Assembly: GCA_024998685.1 (NCBI GenBank)
Contig: JACOEH010000010.1
Coordinates: 47,789-111,788 of the forward strand
Direction: 5' to 3'
Source: Nitrospira sp.
Lineage (GTDB): Bacteria; Nitrospirota; Nitrospiria; Nitrospirales; Nitrospiraceae
Length of the DNA: 64,000 bases
The notes beneath the pieces are model-generated. The model had not been told where the DNA came from. It saw only the letters and a program-made list of their open reading frames with translations, and made no database searches. The position numbers were made by a program, and so were the translations under genes. This document shows positions 44,809-60,339 of the stretch, in pieces; position 1 is the stretch's first letter, and every line of letters starts with the position of its first letter.

Positions 44809-45207
44809 ATGCCATCAGATACCCCGCCTTCGCAGCCGTCTCCCGCAGATCGCCGCGAGTTTTATCGCATCACCGTCACCTTGCCCATTTGTCTTCAGCC
44901 TGAGAGCGACCAGGCGGAGGGAACGCTCATCCAGCGGCCCGTCAACATCAGCGGCGGCGGCATCGGTATCACACTCAATCAGGTCTTCGCGGTCAATGAG
45001 ATTCTCTTTTGCACCCTGCTCCTTCCTGGCCAGGTGCTCTTTAAGTCCTACCTCGAAGTGTTGCGTGTTGACCTTATCCCCTACCCACACAACACGTATC
45101 GCCTCCATGGCCGCTTCGTCAGGATGACCAGTCAGGATCGAGAACTGCTGATCAGGCACATTATGCAGTTCCAGCGAGAACACCTCAATAAACACTACTC
45201 CGCCTGA
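44809..45207 (+). CDS. PilZ domain protein
   Basis: RREFYR (RxxxR) and NISGGG. Confidence 0.9.
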   Translation: MPSDTPPSQPSPADRREFYRITVTLPICLQPESDQAEGTLIQRPVNISGGGIGITLNQVFAVNEILFCTLLLPGQVLFKSYLEVLRVDLIPYPHNTYRLHGRFVRMTSQDRELLIRHIMQFQREHLNKHYSA

Positions 45208-45225: not shown

Positions 45226-45684
45226 ATGATTCAAGACAACTCCGAGGATCCCGCTTCGTCCCCGCCAATGGGGGGTTCATTCCGCCACGCCAGACCCCCT
45301 ACACTGGCCACCGTGGAATCCACACCTCCCTATTTTCGGCATCACTATCGAGTCCCACTCACCGTGCAATACCCCGTAATGTTTTCCGATGCAGAGACGA
45401 TCGCAGAAGGGAAGGTGATGAACCTCACAGTGTTCGGCTGCGCGATCGAGTGTGTCGGTGCCGCACCCCAGCGGACCACCCTCCGCGTACGGCTGATCCT
45501 CCCGGATCAGGCACAGTCACTCCCGGTCGAAGAGGCGGAGGTCCGATGGGTCCAAGGAAATAGAATGGGCCTTCAGTTTCACAAGGTAGAGCGGGCGGCT
45601 GATTTTCGGCTTCACGGATTTGTGTGGGATCGCATGATCGAGCGGCTCCGGACGATCACTCAGGAAGGATTTTCCATCTCTTGA
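45226..45684 (+). CDS. PilZ domain protein
   Basis: RHHYR and degenerate NLTVFG. Confidence 0.85.
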   Translation: MIQDNSEDPASSPPMGGSFRHARPPTLATVESTPPYFRHHYRVPLTVQYPVMFSDAETIAEGKVMNLTVFGCAIECVGAAPQRTTLRVRLILPDQAQSLPVEEAEVRWVQGNRMGLQFHKVERAADFRLHGFVWDRMIERLRTITQEGFSIS

Positions 45685-46667
45685 TCCTGCGGGATCCTGC
45701 CTTTTCCGACCGTTGCCAAACACAACAGTCCGATACCGATCCACACCAGCTCTCGGAACCTTCGCAGCAGCGCGAAGGTGATCCCCGTCACGTCACTGTA
45801 GCCGAACGTTTGGAGCAACAGGAGATTGCCGGCATCTTGGGCACCCAGGCTGCCCGGGATGAAGAAGGATCCGCCCTTGATAAACACCGCGAGTGCCCCT
45901 ATAGAGAGGGCGGACAATAGACTCACCGAACCACCGAGCAAATAGATGATCCCGAAGACTTCCATCGATTCGGCCATCCAGCCCAAAAAGTACACCCCCA
46001 TCGACACATAAAAGGCTTTTTGATGGTTGCGATAGAAATTCCGAATCGTCTGGTCGATCGAGCGCAGGTGCTCTTCCTGGGTTTTCAGAAACCGGACTCG
46101 CAAACCCAATTTCTTGACCAATGACAGAATCGATGCAAAGAGCCCACGCTGCTGGATGAAGACAAATCCTGCAATTGAACACACCAGGAGTCCGACACTC
46201 AACAGCGCTGCCGTAATCGTTCTCCCCGCTGAACTGCCGACACCCAGAATCCAAAAGGCAATGGCGATTCCCGTGAGGATATAGAACACTTCGGCGATCG
46301 TCATGGTCGTCTTCGCAATGACAACTGACGCGGCCCCCTCCGCCATGGGAACATCGTACCGTTTGAGCAGATAGACCTTCAGTGGTTCGCCCCCCAGGTA
46401 GGCGGTCGGAGTGGTCATATTCACCACTTCGCCGGCGCTCCGAATCGTCAGCAGTCGCCAAAACGGAACTCCTTGTGCCGCCCGGCCCAACACCACTTTC
46501 CACCCATAGGCTTCAACGGAATACATGAGGACCGATGGAATCAGGATGGCCAGCAAGGCTATCGGACCAAGTCTGGTAGCAGCCTCATAGATATTGGCCG
46601 GACCGATATGCCAGACCAGAAGGCTCAGAACGATGAGGCCAAGGGCTAGAAGGATATAGCGCAACAC
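45660..46667 (-). CDS. Flippase-like / lysylphosphatidylglycerol synthase TM (UPF0104) protein
   Basis: NMTTPTAYLGGEPLK, FFIPGSLGAQDAG, LLRRFRELVW. Confidence 0.88.
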   Translation of the reverse strand: MLRYILLALGLIVLSLLVWHIGPANIYEAATRLGPIALLAILIPSVLMYSVEAYGWKVVLGRAAQGVPFWRLLTIRSAGEVVNMTTPTAYLGGEPLKVYLLKRYDVPMAEGAASVVIAKTTMTIAEVFYILTGIAIAFWILGVGSSAGRTITAALLSVGLLVCSIAGFVFIQQRGLFASILSLVKKLGLRVRFLKTQEEHLRSIDQTIRNFYRNHQKAFYVSMGVYFLGWMAESMEVFGIIYLLGGSVSLLSALSIGALAVFIKGGSFFIPGSLGAQDAGNLLLLQTFGYSDVTGITFALLRRFRELVWIGIGLLCLATVGKGRIPQDQEMENPS

Positions 46668-46692
46668 GTTAGTCGGATGGTAAGCGCGACAT

Positions 46693-48129
46693 TTATGGCA
46701 GAAGAGATGACACTGCGGATGGGCGGATGACCCAAATCATGGCGCCGGCAAACAGCAAGGAACCGGCTGCCGCAAAGAGTAAAAACCAATAGAGTTGATC
46801 GAACAACGCAAACCCCAGTAAGGCAGCTGAGAAATCACGGCTGGCGACATTTTTCAACATGACGTCCGCCCAGGCTGCATGGACGGGGGTTCTCCAGCCA
46901 CTCACCGCTTTAATCTTTTGCGCCTTTTCGACAAGTAAGAATGAAAGGCCGTTGCCGAATACAGCGGCGGCACCTAGCGCGAGAGGTACCCAAGCGTTCG
47001 CTTGTCCCATATGAGTCGTGTAGAGTCCCACGGCGATGCCGGCAAAAATCGCCATGTGCACAATGTTGTCCAAAACGATATCGAGCCAGGCACCAAAAGG
47101 CGACTCGGTAAAGGTCAATCGCGCGACTTCGCCGTCACAACAATCAATGACGGCCGCCAATTGAAACAAGAGGGCTGCCACGATACCGGCACTGTACGTG
47201 CCCATCCCAAACCCTGCCGCAGCAACCAGACCGATACATCCGGCAAGAACCGTGATGGAATTGGGCGACAGCCCCATGGCGAGAAAGAGGCGCGTGAACC
47301 AGCGAGAGACCTTGCGATTGAAATAGCGATCGACGAACCCTTCAAATTCTCCCTTGAGCGAATTGAACAATTTCGTTTCGGCTGTTTGGACGTCGGACAC
47401 GTTTCGGACGGATTGATACCAAGCATCCCGCCTCTCTTCAGCCGAGACGAGCCGCACTCGACCATCCGCCTCGGCCCGCTCAAGCCACTGCCGGATCGGA
47501 GGGTTTCCCTTTTCACTCGCCGCTTGATTGGCGGTGCTCATCAGGCTTGCCGGCACGACCACCAGCTCGGCGACACGCAAGGCCGGATCGTCGAAACGAG
47601 GAGGGGCGAAAAGCGTCGGGCGACCGGACGGGACTTTCGATCGCACATCCTGCACCATGAACCGATCGACCTGCCTCTGCGGGGCTTGAGAGACCACGAT
47701 GGCCTGACCGTCCTGTATATCACGCCGCAACCGTTCGATCAGCCCTCGAGAGAACACGCCATTGCAGCTCGCGACCAGCGCAAAGCCATGCACTTCCGCC
47801 GCCAAGGTTTCCCATGTCCGAGGATCATCGAGAGGAAACTCACGGATCGGCATCCATCGGACGGGAATCGTGACGCGCGGCCCTTTGCCCAGCGCCTGTT
47901 TCAGCTGCTCCTCCTCGGAACCGGAAAGGACGATTAATTGGCGCATCCCCGCTCGTTGCAAAGTGAGCACGGCCCGTTGGAAGAGCCCGATCCCCACGAC
48001 GTTCGTCAGAGGTCCCACGTCGTCACCCTGCGACCCAATCGGACCGCCGAATACCCCGACAGACGGCAGCAGAATCGCCGTCGCCAGTCCTTGGATTTCG
48101 GCTCTTCGTTGAAGGGTGCTCTTACTCAT
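46693..48129 (-). CDS. CDP-alcohol phosphotransferase with a degenerate N-terminal nucleotidyltransferase-like domain
   Basis: DCCDGEVARLTFTESPFGAWLDIVLD signature; GFVDRYFNRKVS as in DIPPS-like enzymes. Confidence 0.88.
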   Translation of the reverse strand: MSKSTLQRRAEIQGLATAILLPSVGVFGGPIGSQGDDVGPLTNVVGIGLFQRAVLTLQRAGMRQLIVLSGSEEEQLKQALGKGPRVTIPVRWMPIREFPLDDPRTWETLAAEVHGFALVASCNGVFSRGLIERLRRDIQDGQAIVVSQAPQRQVDRFMVQDVRSKVPSGRPTLFAPPRFDDPALRVAELVVVPASLMSTANQAASEKGNPPIRQWLERAEADGRVRLVSAEERRDAWYQSVRNVSDVQTAETKLFNSLKGEFEGFVDRYFNRKVSRWFTRLFLAMGLSPNSITVLAGCIGLVAAAGFGMGTYSAGIVAALLFQLAAVIDCCDGEVARLTFTESPFGAWLDIVLDNIVHMAIFAGIAVGLYTTHMGQANAWVPLALGAAAVFGNGLSFLLVEKAQKIKAVSGWRTPVHAAWADVMLKNVASRDFSAALLGFALFDQLYWFLLFAAAGSLLFAGAMIWVIRPSAVSSLLP

Positions 48130-48185
48130 GGCTTCCCTTAGGCAAGGTCCGCTCCATCGGACATCCTATCATGGGAAAGACTTTC

Positions 48186-48905
48186 TCATAATCTTGGCGA
48201 AACTTCCAACTCGGCTTTTCTTATGTCTTCGCTGAAATCGATCTCGGTCCAGGGCAGACCGCCGATCCGTTCATACCCGACCCGCACATCCTGAAAATAC
48301 GGCAGCAGCGCGTCCTCATACTCCATATCCCATGAACCTCTGTCGATGTAGCCGCGCAGCGACGACACGACACGAGGCGTGTCGGCATGCCGGACGCGAA
48401 GGAATCCAATCCCTTCACCGGCGAAGTCGTACTGTTCCGGCATGGTCTTTGTCAGTGCGACGACTCGGCCTCCCGCGACGACCACCATGCATTCTTCTCC
48501 GGTTTGCTTCACCGTCTCATCCATCAACAGCGCATTCTCAGAGGATGACGACACCAGACGCCGTAGGATTTCCGGATGGAACAGCACATCGGCATCCATC
48601 ACGATCGTATCGTCGTCGAACGCGGTTCGTGCGATCCACAGCGAGGAAATACTGCCTCTGTGAAACTGCTCGTTGACCAGAAACGTCACGTTGACGCCGC
48701 ACGCATCCTGGGCGACCGCCGTACGAATCATTTCCTGCTTATACCCGACGACGATCTCGGCCCGGCGAATCCCGACAGAAACCAGCGACTCCAAGTAACG
48801 ACGCAAAAGCGACCGTCCGCCGATCTCGATGAGGCATTTCGGACGATGCTGGGTCACTTCCCATAGACGTTTTCCCACTCCCGCTGCAAGAATAACCGCC
48901 TTCAT
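48186..48905 (-). CDS. Cytidylyltransferase (LicC/PntC-like)
   Basis: LAAGVGKRL..PKCL, MDADV, WTEIDFSED. Confidence 0.88.
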   Translation of the reverse strand: MKAVILAAGVGKRLWEVTQHRPKCLIEIGGRSLLRRYLESLVSVGIRRAEIVVGYKQEMIRTAVAQDACGVNVTFLVNEQFHRGSISSLWIARTAFDDDTIVMDADVLFHPEILRRLVSSSSENALLMDETVKQTGEECMVVVAGGRVVALTKTMPEQYDFAGEGIGFLRVRHADTPRVVSSLRGYIDRGSWDMEYEDALLPYFQDVRVGYERIGGLPWTEIDFSEDIRKAELEVSPRL

Positions 48906-49984
48906 GCCGACTTACACACGTGCTCAAAGGCGTCGAGAAACCCGCCGCATTCCGCCTCGGACAAGGCCCCCATATTGGCCACGCGGAAAATCTTGTTTTC
49001 CAAGTTGCCTTGACCGGCATAAATGACATAGCCCTGCTGTTTCAGACGGTCATGTAACGTGTGGTAGGACACACCATCCGGCAGATGATAGGCCGTGATG
49101 GTATTCGATTGCCGCTCCGCCGTGAGAAGCGCCTTCACGCCGAGTTTGGCCATTCGCCCACGGATGAAGGTCGCCATTTTCTTGTACCGTTGGATGCGAT
49201 TGGCCACGCCTTCTTCGAGTAGCTCGTTGAGTGCTTCGTCGAAGGCATAGTAGATCTGGACGGCGGGCGTGAAGGGAATCGTGCCTCGCCCCTCGTTGTC
49301 GATGTAATGGGTCAGATGGAGATACCACGAGCGCTTCGGGTACGAACGCATTTTTTCGACGAACCCCTTCCGCACCAGCACGAATGAGACGCCCGGGAAG
49401 CCCTGAATACACTTTCCCGCCGTCCCCGTCACCATATAGATGTGCGACCGCGCAATGTCGATCGTCTCGCCCGCCAGAGCGCTGACGGCATCCAGCACAA
49501 ACACCCGATTCTGATTATCGACGATCTCGGCGATCTCGTGGACCGGATTCAGGAGTCCGGTGGTGGTCTCATGATGTACCATGCCGACGGCATGCACCTC
49601 CTGATGCTGTCGCAAAGCAAGAAGCAATCTTTCCGGATCGGGCGGGACCGTCCATTCATATTTCAACTCGCTTACCCCCAGGCGATGGAGCCCCACGATG
49701 TGAGACATCCGTTCACCATAGACGCCGTTGTTGAGGATGAGCATACGGCGGCCGTGAGGGAGCGACGACATCAAGGCAGCTTCGACGGCAGCCGTCCCTG
49801 ACCCGGTCATCACAACAGCAACGTATTCCGATTCTGCCCCAGGGACAAAGGCCTTGAGCAGTTTGGCTTGGATACGGTGGAGCAGCTCGTAAAATTCATC
49901 TTCTCGATGGCAGATATCGGGTTTCAGCAGCGCCTGCCGCACACGCTCTGACACATTCACCGGCCCAGGATTGAGGAGAACCAC
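48902..49984 (-). CDS. aepZ: Class V PLP aminotransferase, 2-aminoethylphosphonate aminotransferase-like
   Basis: LLNPGP, GSGTAAVEA, HHETTTG, DAVS, TAGKCIQGFPG, GYVIYAG (PhnW/AepZ-like). Confidence 0.8.
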   Translation of the reverse strand: MVLLNPGPVNVSERVRQALLKPDICHREDEFYELLHRIQAKLLKAFVPGAESEYVAVVMTGSGTAAVEAALMSSLPHGRRMLILNNGVYGERMSHIVGLHRLGVSELKYEWTVPPDPERLLLALRQHQEVHAVGMVHHETTTGLLNPVHEIAEIVDNQNRVFVLDAVSALAGETIDIARSHIYMVTGTAGKCIQGFPGVSFVLVRKGFVEKMRSYPKRSWYLHLTHYIDNEGRGTIPFTPAVQIYYAFDEALNELLEEGVANRIQRYKKMATFIRGRMAKLGVKALLTAERQSNTITAYHLPDGVSYHTLHDRLKQQGYVIYAGQGNLENKIFRVANMGALSEAECGGFLDAFEHVCKSA

Positions 49985-49993
49985 TCTTCTCTC

Positions 49994-50089
49994 CGTTATT
50001 CGTTAACCGTGAAGCGTTAATCGCAAAATGCCGATTCTACTTCGTACATCAAATAGCGATTCACGAATAACGTTTCACGAGTGACGTCA
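49994..50089 (-). repeat. Paired 7-bp (CG-anchored) repeat element between ppd-beta and aepZ
   Basis: cgttatt cgttaac cgtgaag cgttaat (49994-50021) and cgattca cgaataa cgtttca cgagtga (50057-50084). Confidence 0.8.
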
Positions 50090-50665
50090 TTCAATCGCTT
50101 TCATGAATCGACGGGTGATATCCGGCGGATCGTGCAAGACGCGGCCTGCATCTTCCACAAATTCATTCACCTTGATGAGCAACATGCTGGGTCCATCCTT
50201 CTTCAGCATGTCTTTGAACTCGTAGACGAGATCGTCGCGATCAAGGACTCGTTCCACATTCACGTAGCCTGCCGACTTCGCCACTTTCTCCAGCGGCACC
50301 ACATTGGAGATCGTGGGCTGGTTCCCGGTCGTCCCGTACACTTCGTTGTCGAAAACGACGTGGATAAAGTTTTTCGGCTTTAACGCACCGATCGTCGCGA
50401 CAGTACCCATTCCCATTAGCACATTTCCATCGCCATCGAAGGTGATCACCTGTTTATTGGGTTTTGCGAGCGCGACACCGAGCGCGATCGCCGGGGCATT
50501 CCCCATGGAGCCGATCATGTAGAAATGGGTGGACCGATCCGCGATCTTGTGAGCCTCGCGCGAGGGGAACCCGTTGCAGATAATGACGGGTTGATCGGTC
50601 AGCAACTCCAACAAAGCCGCCATGGCCTGCGCTCGGCTGATCAATGTGCCTTGTTCGGGTCTCAC
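50087..50665 (-). CDS. ppd: Phosphonopyruvate decarboxylase beta subunit (TPP-binding, ComE-like)
   Basis: FYMIGSMG, DGDGNVLM, DNEVYGTTGNQPT; GTG start overlaps the alpha-subunit TGA. Confidence 0.82.
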   Translation of the reverse strand: MRPEQGTLISRAQAMAALLELLTDQPVIICNGFPSREAHKIADRSTHFYMIGSMGNAPAIALGVALAKPNKQVITFDGDGNVLMGMGTVATIGALKPKNFIHVVFDNEVYGTTGNQPTISNVVPLEKVAKSAGYVNVERVLDRDDLVYEFKDMLKKDGPSMLLIKVNEFVEDAGRVLHDPPDITRRFMKAIE

Positions 50666-51159
50666 GGATGCAACCCTTTCACCACGCCCTTGGTGATGAG
50701 CAACGCGACCGGAATCTGTTGCTGCATGAATGTTTGAGCCACCCACCTGAAATCTTCAATGGCCGTTTTTTCAGTCAAGGTACGATGCGGAATTTTGACG
50801 GTATCGAGCAATTGCGGCATCACTTCTCCCATCACCAAATGTTCGGGAGCATCTTTTCCTCTTTGACCCCGCCATGAAACAATCAATAGGCAAGGTTGCT
50901 TATAAATCATATTCAGAGAAATGAGCGTATTGAGTGAGGTGCCGAGTCCTGAATTCTGCATTAAGACGGCGGGGGTTTTTCCCGCCATATATGCGCCCGC
51001 AGCCATGCCCACCGCTTCATCCTCTCGAACCGCAGGGGTGTAGAGTCGACGGTTCATGAGTTCCGCAATGATCCCGCCCAGGATCGAATCCGGCACGCCG
51101 GTGAAGAAATTGACCCCCATATCCTGCATGGCTTGCACGAACACATCGCTTTCAATCAC
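50662..51159 (-). CDS. ppd: Phosphonopyruvate decarboxylase alpha subunit (ComD-like)
   Basis: FFTGVPDS, REDEAVGMAAGAY, MQNSGLG, SWRG, DAPEH. Confidence 0.82.
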   Translation of the reverse strand: MIESDVFVQAMQDMGVNFFTGVPDSILGGIIAELMNRRLYTPAVREDEAVGMAAGAYMAGKTPAVLMQNSGLGTSLNTLISLNMIYKQPCLLIVSWRGQRGKDAPEHLVMGEVMPQLLDTVKIPHRTLTEKTAIEDFRWVAQTFMQQQIPVALLITKGVVKGLHP

Positions 51160-51207
51160 TGAGCATTCCCCTCGGAATATTGATACACGTCCACGGAAAG
51201 CCGGCGC

Positions 51208-51237
51208 ATTATAAGATACGCCGTGCAGGGTTCTCAA
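51208..51237 (-). promoter_or_regulatory. Sigma70 promoter for the ppd-aepZ-cytidylyltransferase operon
   Basis: TTGAGA, 18 bp, TATAAT on the minus strand. Confidence 0.65.
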
Positions 51238-51317
51238 GAAAGATCCGCGGTTGAGTTGACCTCACTCGCATGTTAGCGTGAATTCCAATACGGCTGTCGC
51301 CCGATCTGCATACAGAG

Positions 51318-51845
51318 ATGAAAAATTGCATTCGATCCGCACCCCATCCTTGGTTGTTGGTCCTGATGTTCGCAATCATGATCAGTGCCGACTCAGTATG
51401 GGCTGTGCCCATGACGAATGATCCGAAGGGATTTCATGGTATTCCCTGGGGGACCTCCTTATCTTCGCGTCAGGACTTGGAACCGATACAGGCAGATCCG
51501 CATATCGCCGAATATCTCCGCAAGACAGAGCCGTCATCATTTGCAGGAACCCAGATGACCAGCGTTCTCTATGTCTCGGTGGACGACCAATTCGCGCGTG
51601 TCATCATTCGGTATCAAGGAGACCACGTGCATCGCCAGGTGCTGGGATTCTTGGAAAGCCGCTTTGGTCGGCTGGAACACATTCCCGGACAAATGGCACG
51701 AGGACTCAGCCAGCAATACAACTGGCGTGGATCCGACACCGAAATCAATTTGACATATCAGGCCAGCACAGAGCGTGGCTATATCTTCATCGATAGTCGC
51801 ACGCTGGCCCCCCGATTCAATGACGACATTACCGATTCCCCATAG
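51318..51845 (+). CDS. Hypothetical exported protein
   Basis: Signal peptide (..ADSVWA), KGFHGIPWG, YNWRG; no family recognised. Confidence 0.8.
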   Translation: MKNCIRSAPHPWLLVLMFAIMISADSVWAVPMTNDPKGFHGIPWGTSLSSRQDLEPIQADPHIAEYLRKTEPSSFAGTQMTSVLYVSVDDQFARVIIRYQGDHVHRQVLGFLESRFGRLEHIPGQMARGLSQQYNWRGSDTEINLTYQASTERGYIFIDSRTLAPRFNDDITDSP

Positions 51846-52077
51846 ATAGCTCGATGGACACGTTTCCCGGAGAACAGCCTTGTCTTAAAATTCTGGTCAA
51901 AATCCGGAATGCGGGATGCAGGTCGCTTACAGATTTATGAACGGAATAGATGACTACCTCCTGCGCAGACACAGTCTTGGCCAATTCGATACGGTTTGCG
52001 ATATTTGAGTAGGAAGCTTAGCCTCACGGCATTTCAACTTCTCTATCACCTGAATTCCGATCCGGCAAAAGTTTTCA

Positions 52078-52106
52078 TTGACAACCGCCGCACGCTTTCG
52101 CATCAT
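52078..52106 (+). promoter_or_regulatory. Putative sigma70 promoter giving a nearly leaderless pepM transcript
   Basis: TTGACA (52078-52083), 17 bp, CATCAT (52101-52106); ATG 9 bp later with no SD. Confidence 0.55.
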
Positions 52107-52115
52107 ATTGACCCT

Positions 52116-53795
52116 ATGACTAACGCCGCAAAACTCCGAGCTGCATTGAAAAGGCCTGGGGCCTTGAAGATAGTCGGCGCTCACGACGCGCTCAGCGCCC
52201 GTCTCATCGAACGCGCCGGTTTCGACGGTGTCTGGGCGAGCGGCTTCGCCATTTCAGCCTCTCTGAAATGTATCCCCGATGCCAGTTTTATCACCTCCAG
52301 CGAGCAACTCGACGTTGAACGGAATATCGTTGAGGCCGTGAACATTCCAGTGATCGCTGACTGCGATACCGGATATGGCAATGCGCTGAATGTCATGCGG
52401 ACCGTCACCGACCGCGAGCGGGCCGGCGTGGCGGCTATTTGCATTGAAGATAACGTTTATCCAAAACGCTGCAGTTTCTATGCGGGCGTTCGTCGAGAAT
52501 TGATTCCCATTGAAGAGCACTGCGGCAAGATTCGAGCGGCGAAAGCCGTTCAGGTTTCCCCAGAATTCATGATCATTGCTAGAACCGAGGCCCTCATCGC
52601 CGGGTGGGGTCAGGAAGAAGCGCTGAAACGGGCTGAAGCCTATGCAGACGCCGGCGCCGATGCAATTCTGATCCATTCGAAATCAAAAAAGTTTGACGAG
52701 TTGAAGGGTGTGTATAAATTGTGGTCCGGGCGCGTCCCGTTGGTCGTGGTTCCCACGATTTTCGATCAGACGACCGCGACGGAAATGGAAGAAGCCGGGG
52801 CAAAGATCATCATCTATGCCAACCAACCGGTACGGGCGGCCATTCGTGCCATGACGGACACGTTGGACCTCATCAAGAAAGACACGCGCCCCGGAGCGGC
52901 AAACGACCGAATCGTCACGCTACCCGAAGTCTATGACATTGTCGGTGTCCCGCAAATGGAGCAAGACGAGAAACAGTTCCTTCCGGTGGGTAGCGAACGA
53001 ATCACCGCGATTATCGCCGCCGCCGGATTCGAAAAACAGCTTTTGCCGTTGATTGAGGATAAGCCGAAGTGTCTGCTCGACATTAAAGGGAAAACGATCC
53101 TCGATCGCCAGATCAGCGCGCTCAACGAATGCGACATCAAAGAAATTGCGTTGGTTCGTGGGTATAAAAAAGAAGCAATCTCGCTTCCTAATATCCGCTA
53201 CTACGACAACGATCGTTACGAGGAAACCGGCGAGCTCGTTTCGCTCTTCTGTGCCGAAAATGAGTTAAGAGGGCGGACCATCGTTTTGTACGGCGATATC
53301 ATCTTTGAGACCGCGATTCTTGAAAAGTTGCTCAAAAGTCCCGCCGACATTGCTCTGGTTGTCGACCTAGCCTGGTTTGATCAGGAACAACTGCATGCCC
53401 AGCCGACCCATTTTAATCCGGATCTTGTCTCACTGGCCGCTCCTCCCGGCAAAAGCTATTTGTCCCGATTTGTGATGCCGGAGGGTGAGCACCAGGTGGT
53501 TAAGATCGGTCAGCAACTTCCCCGTGAACTGGCGCACGGTGAATTCATCGGCATAGCCATGTTCTCCGAAAAAGGCACTCAGACCCTTTGCGAGTACTAT
53601 CACAAGGCCTACAAACAGCATCAATCCTCCCCGTTCCACGACTCTGCAAGCCTGGCCAAGGCTTCTTTCACCGACATGCTGCAGGAACTGATCGACCAAG
53701 GCTACCGCATCCAAGCTGTACCGATTTTCAAGGGATGGATGGAAGTCGACTCTTTCGAAGAGTACCAAAAAGCCTGGGCAAAGATTCGACAGTAA
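52116..53795 (+). CDS. pepM: PEP mutase-like enzyme fused to a C-terminal nucleotidyltransferase
   Basis: GAHDALSA, WASGF, DCDTGYGN, EDNVYPKRCS, IIARTEA, ILIHSK; C-terminal AAAG..PKCLLDI..LYGDI NTase. Confidence 0.8.
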   Translation: MTNAAKLRAALKRPGALKIVGAHDALSARLIERAGFDGVWASGFAISASLKCIPDASFITSSEQLDVERNIVEAVNIPVIADCDTGYGNALNVMRTVTDRERAGVAAICIEDNVYPKRCSFYAGVRRELIPIEEHCGKIRAAKAVQVSPEFMIIARTEALIAGWGQEEALKRAEAYADAGADAILIHSKSKKFDELKGVYKLWSGRVPLVVVPTIFDQTTATEMEEAGAKIIIYANQPVRAAIRAMTDTLDLIKKDTRPGAANDRIVTLPEVYDIVGVPQMEQDEKQFLPVGSERITAIIAAAGFEKQLLPLIEDKPKCLLDIKGKTILDRQISALNECDIKEIALVRGYKKEAISLPNIRYYDNDRYEETGELVSLFCAENELRGRTIVLYGDIIFETAILEKLLKSPADIALVVDLAWFDQEQLHAQPTHFNPDLVSLAAPPGKSYLSRFVMPEGEHQVVKIGQQLPRELAHGEFIGIAMFSEKGTQTLCEYYHKAYKQHQSSPFHDSASLAKASFTDMLQELIDQGYRIQAVPIFKGWMEVDSFEEYQKAWAKIRQ

Positions 53796-53920: not shown

Positions 53921-54328
53921 ATGATGACGAAACCGACGATGAGTGGCCGAAAATCCTATGTTCCTTTAGATAGCCGTTATGCCGAACGTGTAGCCGTTAC
54001 GTGTCGAGTACGCTATGTCGGTGAAGTCCCGACACAGCCTCACCAAGGCGAAGGACTCACAAAAAACATGTCCGTTTCCGGTTGCCACATCATCAGCGAC
54101 CACCCGGTGACACGTGGAACATTATTGACCCTTACCATTATGCTTCCCGACGGACTACCTCAACTTGTCTTGAAATCGGCGCATGTTGTGTGGGTGTCGG
54201 GTTGTCAGTTTTCCGTTCGATTTATGGATCTGAACCGAGACCATCGAAAACGGCTGCAATCTTTCATTTGGAAAAGTATCTCTCACCACACCGTGAGCGA
54301 TCATCGAACTCGATTCCGGCTGATGTAA
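53921..54328 (+). CDS. PilZ domain protein
   Basis: RYAER and NMSVSG. Confidence 0.9.
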   Translation: MMTKPTMSGRKSYVPLDSRYAERVAVTCRVRYVGEVPTQPHQGEGLTKNMSVSGCHIISDHPVTRGTLLTLTIMLPDGLPQLVLKSAHVVWVSGCQFSVRFMDLNRDHRKRLQSFIWKSISHHTVSDHRTRFRLM

Positions 54329-54663: not shown

Positions 54664-55047
54664 ATGAAACAGGTGAAGCACTTGAGACGGCCAGAAATTC
54701 CTTATTCATCTCATTCGATTGAGCGCCGCAGGATGAAAAGAACTCGTGCGTCCTTCGGCATTATGTATTCCGGAGTCAATGGGGATGACGTTTTCATTGG
54801 AGACGGGAGCGCTGTCGATCTATCCGAAGGTGGATTGGGCATTCTCGGAAATTGTCCAGTGAAGATCGGCATGGAGTTGACCTTGTTTTTATATCTCCTG
54901 GATGAAGAGGAACCCCTGTTCGTTTCAGAAGCGATGGTCGCCTGGACGTCGGGATCTCTGTTCGGCATGGAAGTGAAGGAAGTAAGCCTCCATGATGGCG
55001 ATCGGATGTTGTCGTTTCTCCGCGACCAAGCGGTGAGCCAAGCCTAG
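54664..55047 (+). CDS. PilZ domain protein
   Basis: RRMKR and DLSEGG; SD ggagg. Confidence 0.88.
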   Translation: MKQVKHLRRPEIPYSSHSIERRRMKRTRASFGIMYSGVNGDDVFIGDGSAVDLSEGGLGILGNCPVKIGMELTLFLYLLDEEEPLFVSEAMVAWTSGSLFGMEVKEVSLHDGDRMLSFLRDQAVSQA

Positions 55048-55212: not shown

Positions 55213-55258
55213 TGCTCTATTCATGGTGAGTAAGTGGTTACTCACCATGAATAGAGCA
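55213..55258. promoter_or_regulatory. 21-bp perfect inverted repeat over the TetR start (probable operator)
   Basis: tgctctattcatggtgagtaa-gtgg-ttactcaccatgaatagagca. Confidence 0.8.
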
Positions 55259-55891
55259 AGGACATCTTTTCGTAAACGACATCAATCCTCACGAACCTCA
55301 TGTCATGAACGACAGGCCAGCCTAATCAGCGCTGCGACATCGTTGTTTGCCGCTCACGGCTTTACTGGAACGACCACTAAACAAATCGCCAAGGCTGCCG
55401 GTGTCAGTGAAGCACTGCTCTTCAAACACTTTCCGACCAAGCACGCGCTGTACACCGCAATCCTGGCGGAAAAGGCGCAATACTCCGAGTTGCGAGAAGC
55501 CGTCGAAGAAGCAACCAAGAAACGAGATGATGAACGGCTCTTTACGTTGCTCGCCAGCTATCGGATCAGAAAGAGTGCAGATCCGACGATGCTTCGTCTA
55601 CTCCTTTTCAGCGCCTTGGAAAGACATGAGCTGTCCACCATGTTTTTTCAGCGGCAATATCGGGTCTTTCACGATCTTCTCGCCGGCTACATTCGACGAC
55701 GCATCAAGGACGGCGCGTTCCGTCCGGTCGATCCAGTGCTTGCGGCAAAAGCTTTCTTTGGTGTCATCCTCCACCATCGACTACTGCACGATATCTTCGG
55801 GTTACCCATGCACCTGTCCCATGAAGCATCGATGGTTGAATATGTTTCTCTTTTCCTCGGCGGCCTCGTCCGGCAATCGCCTGGCTCGTAA
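55247..55891 (+). CDS. TetR/AcrR family regulator
   Basis: LFAAHGFTGTTTKQIAKAAGVSEALLFKHFPTK HTH; start 55247 or 55223. Confidence 0.95.
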   Translation: MNRARTSFRKRHQSSRTSCHERQASLISAATSLFAAHGFTGTTTKQIAKAAGVSEALLFKHFPTKHALYTAILAEKAQYSELREAVEEATKKRDDERLFTLLASYRIRKSADPTMLRLLLFSALERHELSTMFFQRQYRVFHDLLAGYIRRRIKDGAFRPVDPVLAAKAFFGVILHHRLLHDIFGLPMHLSHEASMVEYVSLFLGGLVRQSPGS

Positions 55892-55906
55892 CTGAGGCGC
55901 ATCGCC

Positions 55907-57082
55907 ATGAGCCGACTCGTCCGACATCCATTTCTAGCCCTTGGGATCGTGATCTTTTTTGCCATCACGGTTCTTGTAATCTTTCGTCTGAGCACGGGCG
56001 CCAAAGCCGATACAAAGAGCGCACGACTCATTACGGTGGGCGTTGTGTCGCCGCTACAGCAGGATCTCGATATTCGCCTGACCTACACAGCGGACATCTC
56101 ACCCAATCAAGTCGTCAATATCTTCTCGCGTGTCGACGGATACATCGCAAAACTGCATGTCGATAAGGGTGATTTTGTCAGGGCGAACCAATTACTCCTA
56201 GAAATCGATCATACCGACTATCAACATGCCGTCAATCAGGCAAAAGCCAATCTTTCATCCGCCAAGGCAAAGGTCTCACAACAGGATGCGGCGGTTCGCA
56301 ATGCCAAGCTGACGTTCGACCGCATGCAGTCCCTCATCAAAGATCAATTTGTCTCACAGCAAGATCTGGATAATGCGCAGGTCAACTTGGAGGCTGCCTG
56401 GGCGGCACACGAATCCCTACAAGCACAGGTCAACCAAATGGAGGTTGCTCTGGCCCAGGCGGAGACCAACCTCGCCTATTCTTACATCCGAGCCCCATTT
56501 CCCGGTTATATCGCAGAACGAAATTTAGATACCGGGTCCTATGTGACCAGCGCAACCGCAAGCACCTCGACAATGTCACGGGGCATCATGAGCCTGCACG
56601 ACATCAATACGGTTCGTGTGTTGATAGAAGTCGTCGAGCGCGACATTCCGTTGGTGAAGATCGGCCAAAAGGCTGAGCTTCGTGCGGAAGCCTACCCAGA
56701 CCAGGTGTTCGAAGGAACCGTCACGCGTATCGTCCAGACCTTGAACCGCGCGACACGTACTATGACAGTGGAAATCGACTTACCCAATAAGGATCGACGA
56801 TTGAAAGGCGGGATGTTTGCCCGAGTCGAAGTCACGGTGGGAACCCACCATCAAGCGTTGCAGATTCCCATCGATACCGTCAGTCGACTAGAAGATACGC
56901 AATATATCTATGTCGTCCGAGAGGGGAAAGCTCAGCGAGTGGATGTCGAGATCGGTGCCCGTAACAATAACCTCGTCGAAATTCTCAAGGGCCTAAGCGG
57001 AGATGAACAGGTCGTCGTCTCCGGCAAAGATCTTGTGCAGAATGGGACGCCCGTACAAACCCAACCGCTTCCGGAATCATGA
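55907..57082 (+). CDS. RND efflux periplasmic adaptor (MFP)
   Basis: SRVDGYI, VDKGD, IRAPFPG, LKGGMFARV. Confidence 0.95.
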   Translation: MSRLVRHPFLALGIVIFFAITVLVIFRLSTGAKADTKSARLITVGVVSPLQQDLDIRLTYTADISPNQVVNIFSRVDGYIAKLHVDKGDFVRANQLLLEIDHTDYQHAVNQAKANLSSAKAKVSQQDAAVRNAKLTFDRMQSLIKDQFVSQQDLDNAQVNLEAAWAAHESLQAQVNQMEVALAQAETNLAYSYIRAPFPGYIAERNLDTGSYVTSATASTSTMSRGIMSLHDINTVRVLIEVVERDIPLVKIGQKAELRAEAYPDQVFEGTVTRIVQTLNRATRTMTVEIDLPNKDRRLKGGMFARVEVTVGTHHQALQIPIDTVSRLEDTQYIYVVREGKAQRVDVEIGARNNNLVEILKGLSGDEQVVVSGKDLVQNGTPVQTQPLPES

Positions 57083-57190
57083 GTGCTGAGGCCTGAGTTC
57101 TAAGTCGAACTATGGGGAAATCGTAACGTGATCGATGCAGCCGGTCTTTAGATGATCCTCCGCTCAGCACTCACCACTCACGGCTCGGCA
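57080..57190 (+). repeat. Paired 7-bp repeat element between the MFP and RND genes
   Basis: tgctgag gcctgag ttctaag (57084-57104) and ctcagca ctcacca ctcacgg ctcggca (57163-57190). Confidence 0.8.
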
Positions 57191-57198
57191 CTACTTTT

Positions 57199-60100
57199 AT
57201 GTGGCTGACTTTACTCGCATTGCGCAATCGCATCGGCATTCTGATGCTATCGCTCGCGATGGTGGTATTGGGGCTGACATCTCTCCAGCACTTGCCGGTT
57301 GATCTCTTCCCGCACATCCAGGTTCCTGTCGCCTTCGTCGGTGTCATTTACAAAGGAGCGCCTCCTCTCGACATCGAGCAGAGCGTCGTATATCCGATCG
57401 AAAAAGCCGTCAGTTCCGCTTCCAATGTCGAACATGTCGAATCATTCAGTAAACAAGGTCTCGGAGCCGTACAAATCTGGTTCAACTGGGGAGCCGACAT
57501 TAATGTCGGTCAAATGGAGGTGATGCAGCGCATCACGCAGATTTTGAATAGCCTCCCCCCAGGCATTCTACAGCCTTTTATCGTCAAGTTCGACGTCTCC
57601 AACATACCCGTTTCGATCGTTTCGGTATCGAGCGATAAGTTGGACGAGCGGGCGCTTTATGATATTGCCTACAACACGATCGCCCCTCAGATTGAGCAGA
57701 TCGCCAATGTTGCGGCGGCCACTGTCGAGGGGGGCAAGATCCGCCAGATCAATATCAACCTCGATCCTGCACTCCTCAGTGCCCGCGGGCTCTCCATTCT
57801 CGACGTCGTGAAATCCGTCAAAGCCTCTAATTTAATTCTCCCTTCGGGCAATATCAAAGCCGGTAACCTTGACTACAATGTATTTACAAACAACCAGTTT
57901 CGAGCGGTAGATCCGATCCAAGACGTGATCGTGAAGGTGAATCCGCAAGGCAACCCGGTCCGCGTTCGCGACATAGGGACCGTCACAGACTCTTCCGATA
58001 TTCAAACGAACATCGTTCACGCCGATGGGGCCAGGTCAGTGTTCCTTCGCGTGAATAAGCAACCGATCGCCAACACGGTCGAGGTCGTGGACACCCTGCG
58101 CGCAGCCCTTCCTAAGATGTTCGGTATCCCTGAAGGAGTAAAGCTCGGCATTTCGTTCGATCAGTCCCTCTATATCCGGCAATCCATCCATAATCTGATT
58201 GAGCAAGCCCTTCACGGTTCGCTATTGGCCGCGGCCGTGATTCTTATATTCTTGCGCAATCTCACGAGTACCATGATCATTTCCGTGGCCATTCCGCTTT
58301 CCATGCTCGTGACGTTTATCGTTCTCTATTTTACCGGTCAAACCCTTAACGTCTTCACGCTTGGCGGACTCGCCCTCGGGATTGGACGTCTGGTTGATGA
58401 CTCAATCGTGGAGCTGGAGAACATCCAACGCCATCTCAATGCCAATGCCAATCGATGGACCGGCATTCTGGACGCAGCCCGTGAAGTGGCGATGCCGATC
58501 TTAGCATCGACGGTCACGACGGTGGTGGTCTTCCTCCCGATGTTCTTCGTCGTCGGCGTCGCGCGTCTGTTGCTGATACCGTTGACCGTGACGATCGCGA
58601 TTGCGCTCTTCACTTCTTTCTTGGTTTCTCGCACGGTGACGCCTGCGCTCTGCTACAAATTCCTCAAGCCTGAGGAAGAAGTTCGGCGGACAATGCCGGA
58701 CTGGTTTATCAAATTCATGGAGTGGAGCCGTCGCCGCTATGAGTCTCTCGATAGAAGTTACGAAGACTCTTTACGGTGGGTCCTGGGACATCGCCGGATC
58801 TTTATCGCCTTGGTGCTGCTGCTCTTCGTCGGATCACTCACTTTGGTTCCGCTGATCGGGACGGAATTTCTGCCGGTTTCCGATGAGAGCCAGTTTCGCA
58901 TCGTCCTGCGGGCTCCGGTCGGTCAACGGGTCGAAAAGACCGAACAGCAGGTCTCGGAAGTCGAACGGGTACTCCGAGCCAATATTCCCTCGACTGAATT
59001 GGAGACGATCGTCTCCAGTACGGGTATCCTGTCGCAAGGTCGCTCGTCGCTCTTCAATCCCAACACAGGGCCCCATACGTCTTCAATTCAAGTGTACTTG
59101 GTCTCACCGGACAAGCGAAACAGAACTCAAGTGGAGATCATGAACGATGTGCGCCCTAAGGTCCTCAAACTGTTTCCGGGCGTCTCGATGTATTTCGATC
59201 CCGGAGGTCTCGTCAAACGCGTGACGAGCTTCGGCTCTCAAAAGGCCGTTGATGTGGAAATTTACGGCTATGACTTCGACAAAGCCAGAGATGTCATCGC
59301 CCGTGTCAAGGAAATTATGGAACAAACTCCCGGCCTGGCGGATATTGAACCGAGTCGGGAAGAAAACTATCCGGAGATCAATGTCACAGTCGATCGAGAG
59401 AAGGCGGCTCTGCTCGGCATCAGCGAGACCGACGTGGCCAACGCTGTCCTGTTTTCTCTGAACGGAAACGGCCAAACCGATCCCATTATCTATACAGATC
59501 CGGAAAGCGGCAATGAATACTTCATCAGCGCATGGCTCGCGGAGGAGCACCGAAAGAATCTCAGCGATGTGGAGAATCTTCTTCTCACCACCAAAGCCGG
59601 CGAACCTGTCTTACTGAAAAACGTGGCTTCCCTCAAGTTGAACGCGGGACCCGTCAAAGTTGATCGGAAGTATTTTCAGCGCGTGGTTCACATTACGGCC
59701 AATCCAACCACCCGGCCCCTCGGTGATATCGCCGAAGACCTTGAGTCTGCATTAGCCGCACTCCAGTTGCCGGCAGGCTTCAGCATCAAGTTGGCAGGGC
59801 AGATTCAGCAGCAGCGTGAAACCTTCCAAGGATTGCAGTTTGCGATCATCCTCGCGCTCGTATTGGTCTACATGGTCATGGCCGCACAATTTAAGTCGCT
59901 CATCGACCCTTTCATCATCATGTTTTCAGTGCCGATGGGCTTCCCTGGGGTCATTTTGATACTGTTTCTGACGAATACGACGTTGTCCACCACCTCGATG
60001 ATGGGCATCATCATGATGTTCGGGATTGTCGTCTCAAACGGAGTCCTGCTGGTCGATTACACCAATGTGCTGCGGCGCAGAGGCGAATCCCTTCACCGGG

Positions 60101-60339
60101 CAGTCGTGACCGCCGCGCGAACTAGACTGCGTCCTATTCTTATGACTTCACTGGCCACGGTCTTCGGCCTTCTTCCCATGGCGATCGGCCTTGGAACAGG
60201 CGGCGAAACCAATGCTCCCCTGGCACGAGCGGTCGTCGGAGGGTTGAGCGTCTCCACACTCCTCACGTTATTTCTCGTCCCAACGATGTACGTAATTTTA
60301 GAAGAACGGTTCCCGAGAAGACTTGACGTGGAAATATGA
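57199..60339 (+). CDS. RND efflux permease (AcrB/AcrD/AcrF superfamily)
   Basis: 1046 aa; LVDDSIVELENI, RLRPILMTS. Confidence 0.96.
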   Translation: MWLTLLALRNRIGILMLSLAMVVLGLTSLQHLPVDLFPHIQVPVAFVGVIYKGAPPLDIEQSVVYPIEKAVSSASNVEHVESFSKQGLGAVQIWFNWGADINVGQMEVMQRITQILNSLPPGILQPFIVKFDVSNIPVSIVSVSSDKLDERALYDIAYNTIAPQIEQIANVAAATVEGGKIRQININLDPALLSARGLSILDVVKSVKASNLILPSGNIKAGNLDYNVFTNNQFRAVDPIQDVIVKVNPQGNPVRVRDIGTVTDSSDIQTNIVHADGARSVFLRVNKQPIANTVEVVDTLRAALPKMFGIPEGVKLGISFDQSLYIRQSIHNLIEQALHGSLLAAAVILIFLRNLTSTMIISVAIPLSMLVTFIVLYFTGQTLNVFTLGGLALGIGRLVDDSIVELENIQRHLNANANRWTGILDAAREVAMPILASTVTTVVVFLPMFFVVGVARLLLIPLTVTIAIALFTSFLVSRTVTPALCYKFLKPEEEVRRTMPDWFIKFMEWSRRRYESLDRSYEDSLRWVLGHRRIFIALVLLLFVGSLTLVPLIGTEFLPVSDESQFRIVLRAPVGQRVEKTEQQVSEVERVLRANIPSTELETIVSSTGILSQGRSSLFNPNTGPHTSSIQVYLVSPDKRNRTQVEIMNDVRPKVLKLFPGVSMYFDPGGLVKRVTSFGSQKAVDVEIYGYDFDKARDVIARVKEIMEQTPGLADIEPSREENYPEINVTVDREKAALLGISETDVANAVLFSLNGNGQTDPIIYTDPESGNEYFISAWLAEEHRKNLSDVENLLLTTKAGEPVLLKNVASLKLNAGPVKVDRKYFQRVVHITANPTTRPLGDIAEDLESALAALQLPAGFSIKLAGQIQQQRETFQGLQFAIILALVLVYMVMAAQFKSLIDPFIIMFSVPMGFPGVILILFLTNTTLSTTSMMGIIMMFGIVVSNGVLLVDYTNVLRRRGESLHRAVVTAARTRLRPILMTSLATVFGLLPMAIGLGTGGETNAPLARAVVGGLSVSTLLTLFLVPTMYVILEERFPRRLDVEI

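Follow-up and report, generated by a model that had tools for sequence, protein, structure and literature searches.

Does Nitrospira, a genus of nitrite oxidizers and complete ammonia oxidizers active in soils, freshwater, drinking water and wastewater, make membrane lipids with a carbon-phosphorus (C-P) bond? The question is raised by a gene cluster at positions 45660 to 53795 of a 64,000-nucleotide stretch of Nitrospira sp. DNA (assembly GCA_024998685.1, contig JACOEH010000010.1, positions 47,789 to 111,788 of the forward strand), referred to here as the window. An original prediction, made from the letters of the window, read this cluster as a full route to a lipid or surface decoration bearing 2-aminoethylphosphonate (AEP), a major substrate of microbial phosphorus scavenging. 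If Nitrospira makes AEP lipids, a very abundant guild is a source of environmental phosphonate, and its membranes contain a phosphatase-resistant head group with a bearing on surface and biofilm biology. Here, we describe a computational analysis of the cluster. We present evidence that it probably makes an AEP head group and transfers it to a membrane lipid. Furthermore, we show that the enzyme at the entry to the pathway, a phosphoenolpyruvate (PEP) mutase-like protein that we call type A, lacks the motif by which PEP mutases (PepM) are recognized and appears to represent an old lineage.

The proposed pathway begins with the type A domain, which would convert PEP to phosphonopyruvate, the absence of the canonical motif notwithstanding. 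PpdAB, a split thiamine pyrophosphate (TPP)-dependent phosphonopyruvate decarboxylase (Ppd), would then form phosphonoacetaldehyde, drawing the unfavourable mutase equilibrium forward, and a class V transaminase would convert the aldehyde to AEP. A stand-alone PntC-like cytidylyltransferase is predicted to join AEP and cytidine triphosphate (CTP) into CMP-AEP, the cytidine monophosphate (CMP) ester, from which the CDP-alcohol phosphotransferase domain of a 478-residue protein would transfer the aminoethylphosphonyl group to a lipid alcohol, releasing CMP. The acceptor would most simply be diacylglycerol, by analogy with Kennedy-type ethanolamine phosphotransferases, and an MprF-like flippase-family protein may bring the AEP lipid to the outer leaflet. 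We infer every substrate and the product of the cluster from comparisons of the kind presented below.

Gene content of the cluster

The gene set was established by open reading frame (ORF) listing together with Pfam and NCBIfam profile searches, in which the matches of the cluster genes lie far above chance level. The two sources agree with the original prediction on seven genes in two divergent units, at the coordinates and on the strands that it gave:

45660..46667, minus strand: LPG_synthase_TM/MprF-flippase-domain protein, HpnL-like, 335 amino acids (PF03706, 112.6 bits)
46693..48129, minus strand: two-part CDP-alcohol phosphotransferase, 478 amino acids (PF01066, 44.9 bits, residues 288-418)
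48186..48905, minus strand: stand-alone PntC/LicC-type nucleotidyltransferase (NTase), 239 amino acids (PF00483 and PF12804)
48902..49984, minus strand: aept, class V AEP transaminase, 360 amino acids (TIGR03301, 349.6 bits)
50087..50666, minus strand: ppdB, beta (TPP_C) subunit of the split decarboxylase, 193 amino acids (PF02775, 74.7 bits)
50662..51237, minus strand: ppdA, alpha (TPP_N) subunit, at most 191 amino acids, start uncertain (PF02776, 35.4 bits)
52116..53795, plus strand: type A PEP-mutase-like/NTase fusion, 559 amino acids (PF13714, 195.6 bits; PF12804, NTP_transf_3, 38.5 bits)
52446..52475, plus strand: codons of the active-site gating loop of type A, E-D-N-V-Y-P-K-R-C-S (structure-based residue alignments)

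The overlapping start and stop codons first noted at this locus are real at two junctions: ATGA at 48905-48902 holds the stop of aept and the start of the stand-alone NTase gene, and GTGA at 50666-50662 holds the TGA of ppdA and the GTG of ppdB. The latter GTG is most likely the start of ppdB (193 residues), whose frame is open back to 50746. The mutase gene, previously begun at TTG 51996, most likely starts at ATG 52116, giving a protein of 559 residues, as in nearly all homologues. Among named proteins, the N. moscoviensis orthologue is the nearest to this fusion (86% identity), in agreement with a Nitrospira origin of the window.

Decarboxylase, transaminase and cytidylyltransferase

The TPP_N and TPP_C domains of a Ppd lie on two adjacent, overlapping genes, with positions 1-156 and 166-358 of the NCBIfam Ppd model, TIGR03297, split over ppdA and ppdB. 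For ppdA, this model scores 134.3 bits versus 120.4 bits for the sulfopyruvate decarboxylase alpha model TIGR03845; for ppdB, it scores 172.0 bits versus 180.2 bits for the sulfopyruvate decarboxylase beta model TIGR03846, all four scores being below cut-off. The best solved relative of ppdB is 9iz3, a 'putative phosphonopyruvate decarboxylase beta subunit' (1.4e-27). Because split Ppd enzymes of this kind exist, the division into two genes is not unusual and was discarded as an argument for a ComDE-type sulfopyruvate decarboxylase. The sequence FFTGVPDS is shared by ppdA and the single-chain Ppd beside canonical PepM in locus L109, and the genomic context favours Ppd over ComDE.

The transaminase aligns to the PhnW-AepZ model TIGR03301 over residues 2-355 of 360, with a score slightly under the cut-off of 360.8. 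The best solved relative of the stand-alone NTase is the PntC-AEP transaminase of Treponema denticola, Tde1415 (6pd1, 4.6e-15), followed by LicC (1jyk). Its glycine loop, AAGVGKRL...RPK, is intact, and the alignment places Glu at the position of Tde Glu196 and Asp at that of Tde Glu104, the two residues that face the amine of AEP in Tde-PntC (Rice et al. 2019). With a LicC-type fold, a nucleotide loop and amine-facing acidic residues all present, the stand-alone NTase is likely to be the AEP cytidylyltransferase. The LicC/PntC-like NTase domain fused to the mutase aligns to it with an hhalign probability of 99.5% and has a degenerate glycine loop, AAAGFEKQL.

The phosphotransferase and the flippase-like protein

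The CDP-alcohol phosphotransferase signature, DCCDGEVARLTFTESPFGAWLDIVLD, lies at residues 329-354 of the 478-residue protein and is invariant in 20 orthologues; the full pattern D-x2-D-G-x2-A-R-x8-G-x3-D-x3-D is present as DCCDGEVAR-x8-G-x3-D-x3-D. The transmembrane domain is modelled by AlphaFold at a predicted local distance difference test score (pLDDT) of 70-92, and its closest solved relatives are AF2299 (4o6m, 1.9e-20) and then IPCT/DIPPS (4mnd, 2.8e-13).

The N-terminal approximately 270 residues of this protein are strongly conserved within Nitrospira and have no Pfam match at E<=1. They are modelled at a pLDDT below 50 because the alignment is shallow (effective number of sequences about 1.9). 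Comparison with NTase domains by hhalign gives probabilities of 1-18%, the best being the PepM-fused NTase domain, aligned in register (18%, E 1.4e-3), and the nucleotide-binding loop is degenerate. The annotators of N. moscoviensis label the orthologue a bifunctional NTase/phosphatidyltransferase (Mundinger et al. 2019). This extension is possibly a degenerate nucleotidyltransferase fold, an assignment that the low hhalign probabilities only weakly favour. Candidate roles for it and for the PepM-fused NTase domain are regulatory, scaffolding or a second activation.

Over its whole membrane domain the last protein of the operon matches the MprF-type flippase domain (PF03706, cut-off 33.4, residues 7-307; TIGR00374, 61.7 bits, cut-off 43.2), which places it in that family. 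It reaches 165.4 bits on the hopanoid-associated HpnL model TIGR03476, below the cut-off of 195.65. In every Nitrospira locus with sufficient flanking sequence, this gene closes the operon.

A conserved mutase-like protein with a cysteine in the gating loop

The mutase domain comprises residues 1 to about 295 of the fusion, and its PF13714 score, set against a cut-off of 31.5, places it in the PEP mutase/isocitrate lyase fold family. Its best solved relative is a PepM, Streptomyces 5unc (3e-85, approximately 50% identity over 290 residues), followed by phosphonopyruvate hydrolase 2dua and Mytilus PepM 1m1b. The residues equivalent to Trp44, Ser46, Gly47, Asp58, Asp85, Asp87, Glu114, Lys120, Ser123, Arg159 and His190 (Mytilus PepM numbering) are kept, so that, apart from positions 116 and 122, the magnesium- and phosphoryl-binding residues are PepM-like and invariant or nearly so across the type A alignment. 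The genome's own methylisocitrate lyase is without the equivalents of Trp44, Ser123 and His190.

The field's definition of PepM is a perfect match to EDKx5NS (e.g. Rice et al. 2019), although one study tolerated up to two deviations given an adjacent Ppd gene. The corresponding loop reads EDKRFPKVNS in 5unc, EDKLFPKTNS in 1m1b, EDKTFPKDTS in 2dua and EDQVWPKKCG in petal death protein, a C-C lyase; in type A it is EDNVYPKRCS, with Asn in place of Lys116 and Cys in place of Asn122. All 121 Nitrospira homologues have exactly this loop, and ED[NS]xxPKRCSF is found in all 117 homologues from other phyla, which carry names from Vicinamibacterales, Myxococcales, Planctomycetes, Binatia, Bdellovibrionota and Thermodesulfobacteriota. 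At NCBI, type A proteins are named 'isocitrate lyase/PEP mutase family protein', and the canonical PepM-NTase fusions of other Nitrospira, here called type B, 'phosphoenolpyruvate mutase'.

In a quick tree, built from 125 representatives with the genome's prpB as root and with the Shimodaira-Hasegawa-like approximate likelihood-ratio test (SH-aLRT) as its only support measure, the canonical K..NS sequences gather into one supported clade, and the x..CS and N..NS variants branch between it and the lyases as a basal grade. The idea that type A is a recent, degenerate PepM was rejected, since the Cys is invariant across phyla and the position of type A is basal rather than nested; by both marks it appears to be an old lineage and not a decayed PepM. 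Eight representatives (P0132, P0197, P0198, P0221, P0224, P0235, P0240 and P0243) have Asn116 and keep Asn122 (EDNx5NS); these also fail a strict EDKx5NS filter and branch near the base of the family. Whether the Cys-loop proteins (ED[N/S]xxxPKRCS) form an ancient clade of their own among PEP mutases, making C-P bonds with a thiol in place of Asn122, is in our judgement evenly poised.

Exchange of type A and type B among Nitrospira genomes

Indirect support for catalysis by type A comes from its distribution. A relative of the phosphotransferase is encoded in at least 216 genome stretches, from species-level genomes, of which the best 80, labelled Nitrospira or Nitrospirota bar one mislabelled record, were examined. 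The order ppdA-ppdB-aept-NTase-cdpoh-flip is kept at 68-95% identity and the operon is present in 80 of 80 loci as far as the flanks reach. In the 66 loci where it can be decided, type A lies beside a conserved gene for a 175-residue protein, adjoining ppdA, in 22 and does not in 44. Type A is coupled to Ppd in its genomic position: it is divergent from ppdAB in the window and in 22 Nitrospira loci, and lies directly upstream of a split Ppd in Myxococcota and Vicinamibacterales.

Several of the 44 loci without type A contain its remnants, located between the 175-residue protein gene and the first of the neighbouring PilZ genes. At L014:3187-3653, residues 11-164 of type A can be recognized (E 1.8e-57); N-terminal remnants are found at L020:2177-2601 and L021:3136-3600; and the last approximately 30 residues persist at 70-90% identity near 3570-3660 in L013, L015, L017 and L022. 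At least four changes of state are needed on the operon tree.

Across 401 Nitrospirota genomes, one PepM-type match is found in 71 of 75 genomes of one main family and in 40 of 40 of the other. About 25 genomes have type A; the rest have type B, which is about 39% identical to type A and carries the loop EDKLFPKTNSF. No genome in this sample has both. The window's genome holds no other PepM candidate, its sole other superfamily member being prpB, between prpC and prpD. In one type A genome, a PepM-like frame of 536 residues, 35% identical and with a TAA stop inside it (G367:C8:55178-56080), may be a decaying second PepM-NTase.

Type B is usually a lone gene, flanked by a PsiF-repeat gene and truA, and has no Ppd within 10 kb; in some cases a single-chain Ppd comes after it. 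At L203:6001-7635 and L204:6001-8887, the canonical PepM-NTase gene occupies one fixed housekeeping site, flanked by ispD-ispF-cysE-psiF and, on the opposite side, by truA-amiC. A complete chromosome of 4,140,562 bp, for which two records were taken as one and the same chromosome, has the operon without type A at 0.65 Mb (L036) and an orphan type B at 2.79 Mb with no adjacent Ppd. In Nitrospira sp. BLG_1, the operon, again without type A, is on one contig and a cassette of type B plus Ppd on another, the single-chain Ppd following type B here and not in the 4.14-Mb chromosome. The type B locus thus looks like an inserted cassette from which Ppd was later lost.

The simplest reading of this distribution is that a type B(+Ppd) cassette was gained, that type A then decayed, and that the cassette's Ppd was often lost; this would amount to a reciprocal natural complementation. 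If so, type A and type B would do the same job, as would PpdAB and Ppd. From their mutual exclusion and the decayed remnants, we therefore argue that type A is a working PEP mutase. The Nitrospira genomes are related, and the counts given here are not independent trials.

A different combination was observed at L158:782-10418, where a canonical PepM-NTase, a single-chain Ppd, a TagF-like glycerophosphotransferase, a methyltransferase and a YidC-like protein are encoded. This locus continues with aept and NTase genes that are 79% and 76% identical to those of the window, and a 580-residue protein of no known family takes the place of the CDP-alcohol phosphotransferase.

Type A modules outside Nitrospira

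In Myxococcota (L113, L201) and Vicinamibacterales (L115), the type A-NTase fusion is followed directly by split TPP_N/TPP_C genes and an NTase gene. A CDP-OH_P_transf gene adjoins the module in L201. In L115, the module is adjoined by a PAP2_3 gene of the head-group-transferase type and by Spt-like, acyl carrier protein (ACP) and acyl-ACP-synthetase-like genes; over L115:3772-13927, genes for an ACP, an AMP-binding protein, an Aminotran_1_2 (serine-palmitoyltransferase-like) protein, an epimerase-family protein and a PAP2_3 protein precede type A-NTase, PpdAB and NTase. No AEP transaminase is annotated on the L115 contig. This sphingolipid-type neighbourhood suggests that the product there may be a phosphonosphingolipid. 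In four other contexts outside Nitrospira, type A is an orphan. Homologues of the window's phosphotransferase or flippase were not detectable in canonical PepM clusters from other taxa (L176-L197), and a tblastn search of the PLSDB plasmids with the phosphotransferase gave only distant actinomycete and Sphingomonas matches.

Expression in N. moscoviensis

The cultured species N. moscoviensis has a type A genome (L081), and published proteomic and transcriptomic tables contain its pepM (type A), ppdB (annotated comE), phnW, NTase and phosphotransferase as both peptides and transcripts. The values below, with transcripts in reads per kilobase per million (RPKM), are from Table S1 of Lawson et al. 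2021 (PMC8407350):

NITMOv2_0598, pepM: 31 peptides, 178 spectral counts, RPKM 558 (rank 320)
NITMOv2_0602, comE: 16 peptides, 171 spectral counts, RPKM 203
NITMOv2_0603, phnW: 25 peptides, 211 spectral counts, RPKM 263
NITMOv2_0604, NTase: 18 peptides, 86 spectral counts, RPKM 178
NITMOv2_0605, phosphotransferase: 8 peptides, 25 spectral counts, RPKM 457

Transcription of NITMOv2_0603 and NITMOv2_0605 was also reported in a chemostat (Mundinger et al. 2019). The word 'phosphonate' is absent from the supplementary files of both studies.

Weighing the AEP-lipid reading against its alternatives

The genes of the original prediction are confirmed, and its interpretation, the best available, is supported in part. 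For the route as a whole, every downstream step is represented by a protein of the expected family, the literature knows clusters of this type, and the genes are expressed in N. moscoviensis, while the mutase motif failed and the phosphotransferase is closest to enzymes that do not use diacylglycerol. For the gene called pepM, the PEP mutase fold and the PepM best solved relative stood, and the motif and the family cut-off did not. Since type A fails both EDKx5NS and the PepM cut-off, the completeness claimed for the pathway depends on comparative-genomic inference.

A number of observations weigh against the synthesis of an AEP lipid. The mutase scores 270.7 bits on the PepM model TIGR02320, below the equivalog cut-off of 319.55, and its loop, EDNVYPKRCS, does not match EDKx5NS. 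Position 122 has been credited with the divergence of mutase from hydrolase (PMC3266647, PMC7916636), and a Cys at this position is the catalytic residue of the C-C lyases of the superfamily. Type A branches outside the canonical PepM clade, and its function therefore cannot be inherited by orthology. PpdAB fits sulfopyruvate decarboxylase models equally well, and the N. moscoviensis orthologue of ppdB is annotated comE. Among solved structures, those nearest to the phosphotransferase either act on soluble CDP-alcohols with soluble acceptors or lack assigned substrates; neither AF2299 nor IPCT/DIPPS is a diacylglycerol-using enzyme. Some type B genomes have their own Ppd beside type B, and the type B locus could therefore be a separate pathway in them. 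Finally, a literature search found no chemical evidence for a C-P compound in Nitrospira. That search, which gave no link of Nitrospira to phosphonopyruvate or a C-P lipid, agrees with the original statement that no C-P lipid is known to have been characterised from nitrifiers; one lake metagenome study mentions pepM in Nitrospirota in passing.

The alternative that survives best, although we consider it unlikely, keeps the same route as far as CMP-AEP and changes the product: a DIPPS/AF2299-like enzyme would use a different acceptor and make something other than a glycerophosphonolipid. Candidate acceptors are a soluble polyol or sugar-phosphate, giving a compatible-solute-like phosphonodiester, a polyprenol- or hopanoid-linked carrier, and an exported glycan intermediate. 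The closeness of the phosphotransferase to AF2299 and the bifunctional IPCT/DIPPS speaks for such a product, as does the NCBIfam IPCT/DIPPS model, which matches both the stand-alone NTase and the 478-residue protein. The flippase-like protein scores best on the HpnL model, locus L158 pairs related aept-NTase genes with a TagF-like glycerophosphotransferase, and the four PilZ genes around the cluster, whose products bind cyclic di-GMP (c-di-GMP), suggest a link to the surface or biofilm. Yet a membrane-embedded transferase together with an MprF-type flippase-family protein is most simply explained by lipid head-group chemistry, the homologous modules in other phyla adjoin lipid enzymes (PAP2_3/Spt-like, CDP-OH_P_transf), and this combination of genes is classed as phosphonolipid in the literature (PMC8942020).

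A second alternative, which we judge improbable, denies the C-P bond altogether. In this case type A would not be a PEP mutase, and the split decarboxylase, of ComDE type or acting on another 2-oxo acid from a Cys-dependent, lyase-type reaction, would lead with the transaminase, NTase and phosphotransferase to a sulfonate or another amino-alcohol head group. The lyase-type K-R-C of the type A loop, the position of type A outside the canonical clade, the sulfopyruvate decarboxylase beta model as top NCBIfam match of ppdB and the comE annotation in N. moscoviensis would all accord with it. Against these stand the Trp44, His190 and Ser123 equivalents of type A, which are specific to PepM and phosphonopyruvate hydrolase and which the genome's methylisocitrate lyase does not share; the full-length, near-cut-off match of the transaminase to AEP transaminases, known taurine transaminases being of a different class; and the phosphonopyruvate decarboxylase beta subunit that is the best solved relative of ppdB. 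Moreover, it is canonical PepM, and not a sulfopyruvate-forming enzyme, that replaces type A in two thirds of the operon-bearing Nitrospira genomes.

A catabolic or salvage role can be given hardly any credence. In it, the transaminase would run in the PhnW direction on imported AEP, and the PepM-like enzyme would cleave the C-P bond as a phosphonopyruvate hydrolase does. That hydrolase ranks second among both the solved and the NCBIfam matches of the mutase domain and likewise has a residue other than Asn at position 122. Catabolism, however, has no use for a TPP decarboxylase, for two or three NTase-fold domains, for a CDP-alcohol phosphotransferase or for a flippase-like protein; profile searches of the neighbouring genes found no transporter, phosphonatase or LysR regulator; and phosphonopyruvate decarboxylation is irreversible and biosynthetic.

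Neighbouring genes

The remaining features of the locus are as follows:

49985..50086, minus strand: spacer between ppdB and aept, with inverted runs of CG-anchored heptamers
51318..51845, plus strand: conserved 175-amino acid protein with a signal-peptide-like N-terminus (no Pfam or NCBIfam match)
44809-45207 and 45226-45684, plus strand: two PilZ genes, convergent on the flippase-like gene (PF07238, 40.9 and 32 bits)
53921-54328 and 54664-55047, plus strand: two PilZ genes, downstream of the PepM-like gene (PF07238, 45.9 and 32.7 bits)

The gene for the 175-residue protein sits between the two divergent units and is divergent from ppdA, which it adjoins in every Nitrospira locus with enough flank, with or without the PepM-like gene. 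Profile searches assigned the protein to no Pfam or NCBIfam family; it may be a periplasmic partner of the pathway. The spacer between ppdB and aept contains two sets of CG-anchored heptamers in inverted orientation, and its predicted RNA fold (-27 kcal/mol) is not exceptional relative to shuffled sequences (z = -1.08).

The PilZ genes flank the cluster two per side and are conserved neighbours in most Nitrospira loci, an arrangement that may connect the cluster with c-di-GMP, biofilm or surface regulation. Past them, at 55223-60339, lie genes for a TetR-family regulator and an HlyD-family membrane-fusion protein, both conserved beside the cluster in many Nitrospira loci, and an ORF of 1046 codons (57199-60339) that probably encodes a resistance-nodulation-division (RND) pump. 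Between 41.8 and 60.3 kb, the neighbours of the cluster thus comprise CstA, a GST-like protein, the four PilZ proteins, the TetR regulator, the HlyD-family protein and this large ORF.

Implications

Were the Cys-loop proteins C-P bond-forming mutases, surveys would have consistently passed over phosphonate or phosphonolipid producers among type A Nitrospira, N. moscoviensis included, and among members of Acidobacteriota, Myxococcota, Planctomycetota, Binatia and other groups. Soils, freshwater and wastewater systems would then have in Nitrospira a globally abundant source of AEP lipids that has so far gone unrecognised. If Nitrospira makes AEP-headed lipids, the predicted 'CDP-OH' class of phosphonolipid clusters would gain a test organism in N. 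moscoviensis, which is cultured, non-pathogenic and already shown to express the cluster. An invariant Cys at the position held to decide between mutase and hydrolase challenges the motif used for counting phosphonate producers and provides a natural experiment on the mechanism of PepM. Published surveys of phosphonate genes, which filter on EDKx5NS, would have missed a cluster whose type A enzyme is without the signature motif, and the string 'Nitrospir' is absent from the text of the Rice et al. 2019 and Li & Horsman 2022 (PMC8942020) inventories. Lacking EDKx5NS, the Nitrospira mutase would be filtered out of the latter.

Comparison with known systems

Compared with canonical PepM (1m1b and Streptomyces 5unc), type A has the same fold and family, the NTase fusion and the coupling to Ppd, and differs in its invariant Asn116 and Cys122, its score below the cut-off and its basal branching. 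The route as a whole has a precedent in Tetrahymena, where AEP is converted to CMP-AEP and then to lipid by CMP-AEP:diacylglycerol transfer. A sphingophosphonolipid of Bacteriovorax stolpii is mentioned by Li & Horsman 2022 (PMC8942020), and the Nitrospira route would follow the same chemical logic as the Tetrahymena and B. stolpii phosphonolipids.

As in the Pnt/Lic systems (Tde1415 PntC, Streptococcus pneumoniae LicC), the stand-alone NTase keeps its nucleotide loop and amine-facing acidic residues; in contrast to these systems, in which a LicD-type transferase decorates glycans, Nitrospira has a CDP-alcohol phosphotransferase. With AF2299 and IPCT/DIPPS the latter shares a two-part architecture, the closest transmembrane-domain sequence and an identical catalytic signature. 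Its N-terminal region, unlike that of IPCT/DIPPS, has no significant similarity to the IPCT domain, and its context is that of a phosphonate rather than of inositol phosphate.

The closest counterpart in published work is the 'Burkholderiales_CDP-OH' group, 318 neighbourhoods that correspond to what Yu et al. 2013 classed as Group 1 phosphonolipids and from which no phosphonolipid has yet been characterised (Li & Horsman 2022, PMC8942020). Its seven-gene core consists of a Ppm-PntC fusion, Ppd, an AEP transaminase (AEPT), an alpha-ketoglutarate (alpha-KG)/Fe(II) oxygenase, a second PntC and two phospholipid genes (PMC8942020). Six of these seven functions are found in the Nitrospira cluster, which falls short of full membership: the Ppm-NTase fusion, Ppd, AEPT, the second PntC and two membrane genes of phospholipid type are shared, the product being a predicted one in both cases. 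The seventh function is missing, with no oxygenase among the genes from 41.8 to 60.3 kb in profile searches that left the ORF at 57199-60339 unscanned; in the absence of an alpha-KG/Fe(II) oxygenase within about 8 kb, plain AEP and not 1-hydroxy-AEP is therefore expected. The Nitrospira cluster further differs from the published descriptions in a Ppd split over two genes, a phosphotransferase with a large N-terminal extension, and units that are divergent with a secreted-protein gene between them. The architecture of the cluster is thus already known in kind, and what is new is the lineage in which it occurs and the variant parts of which it is made.

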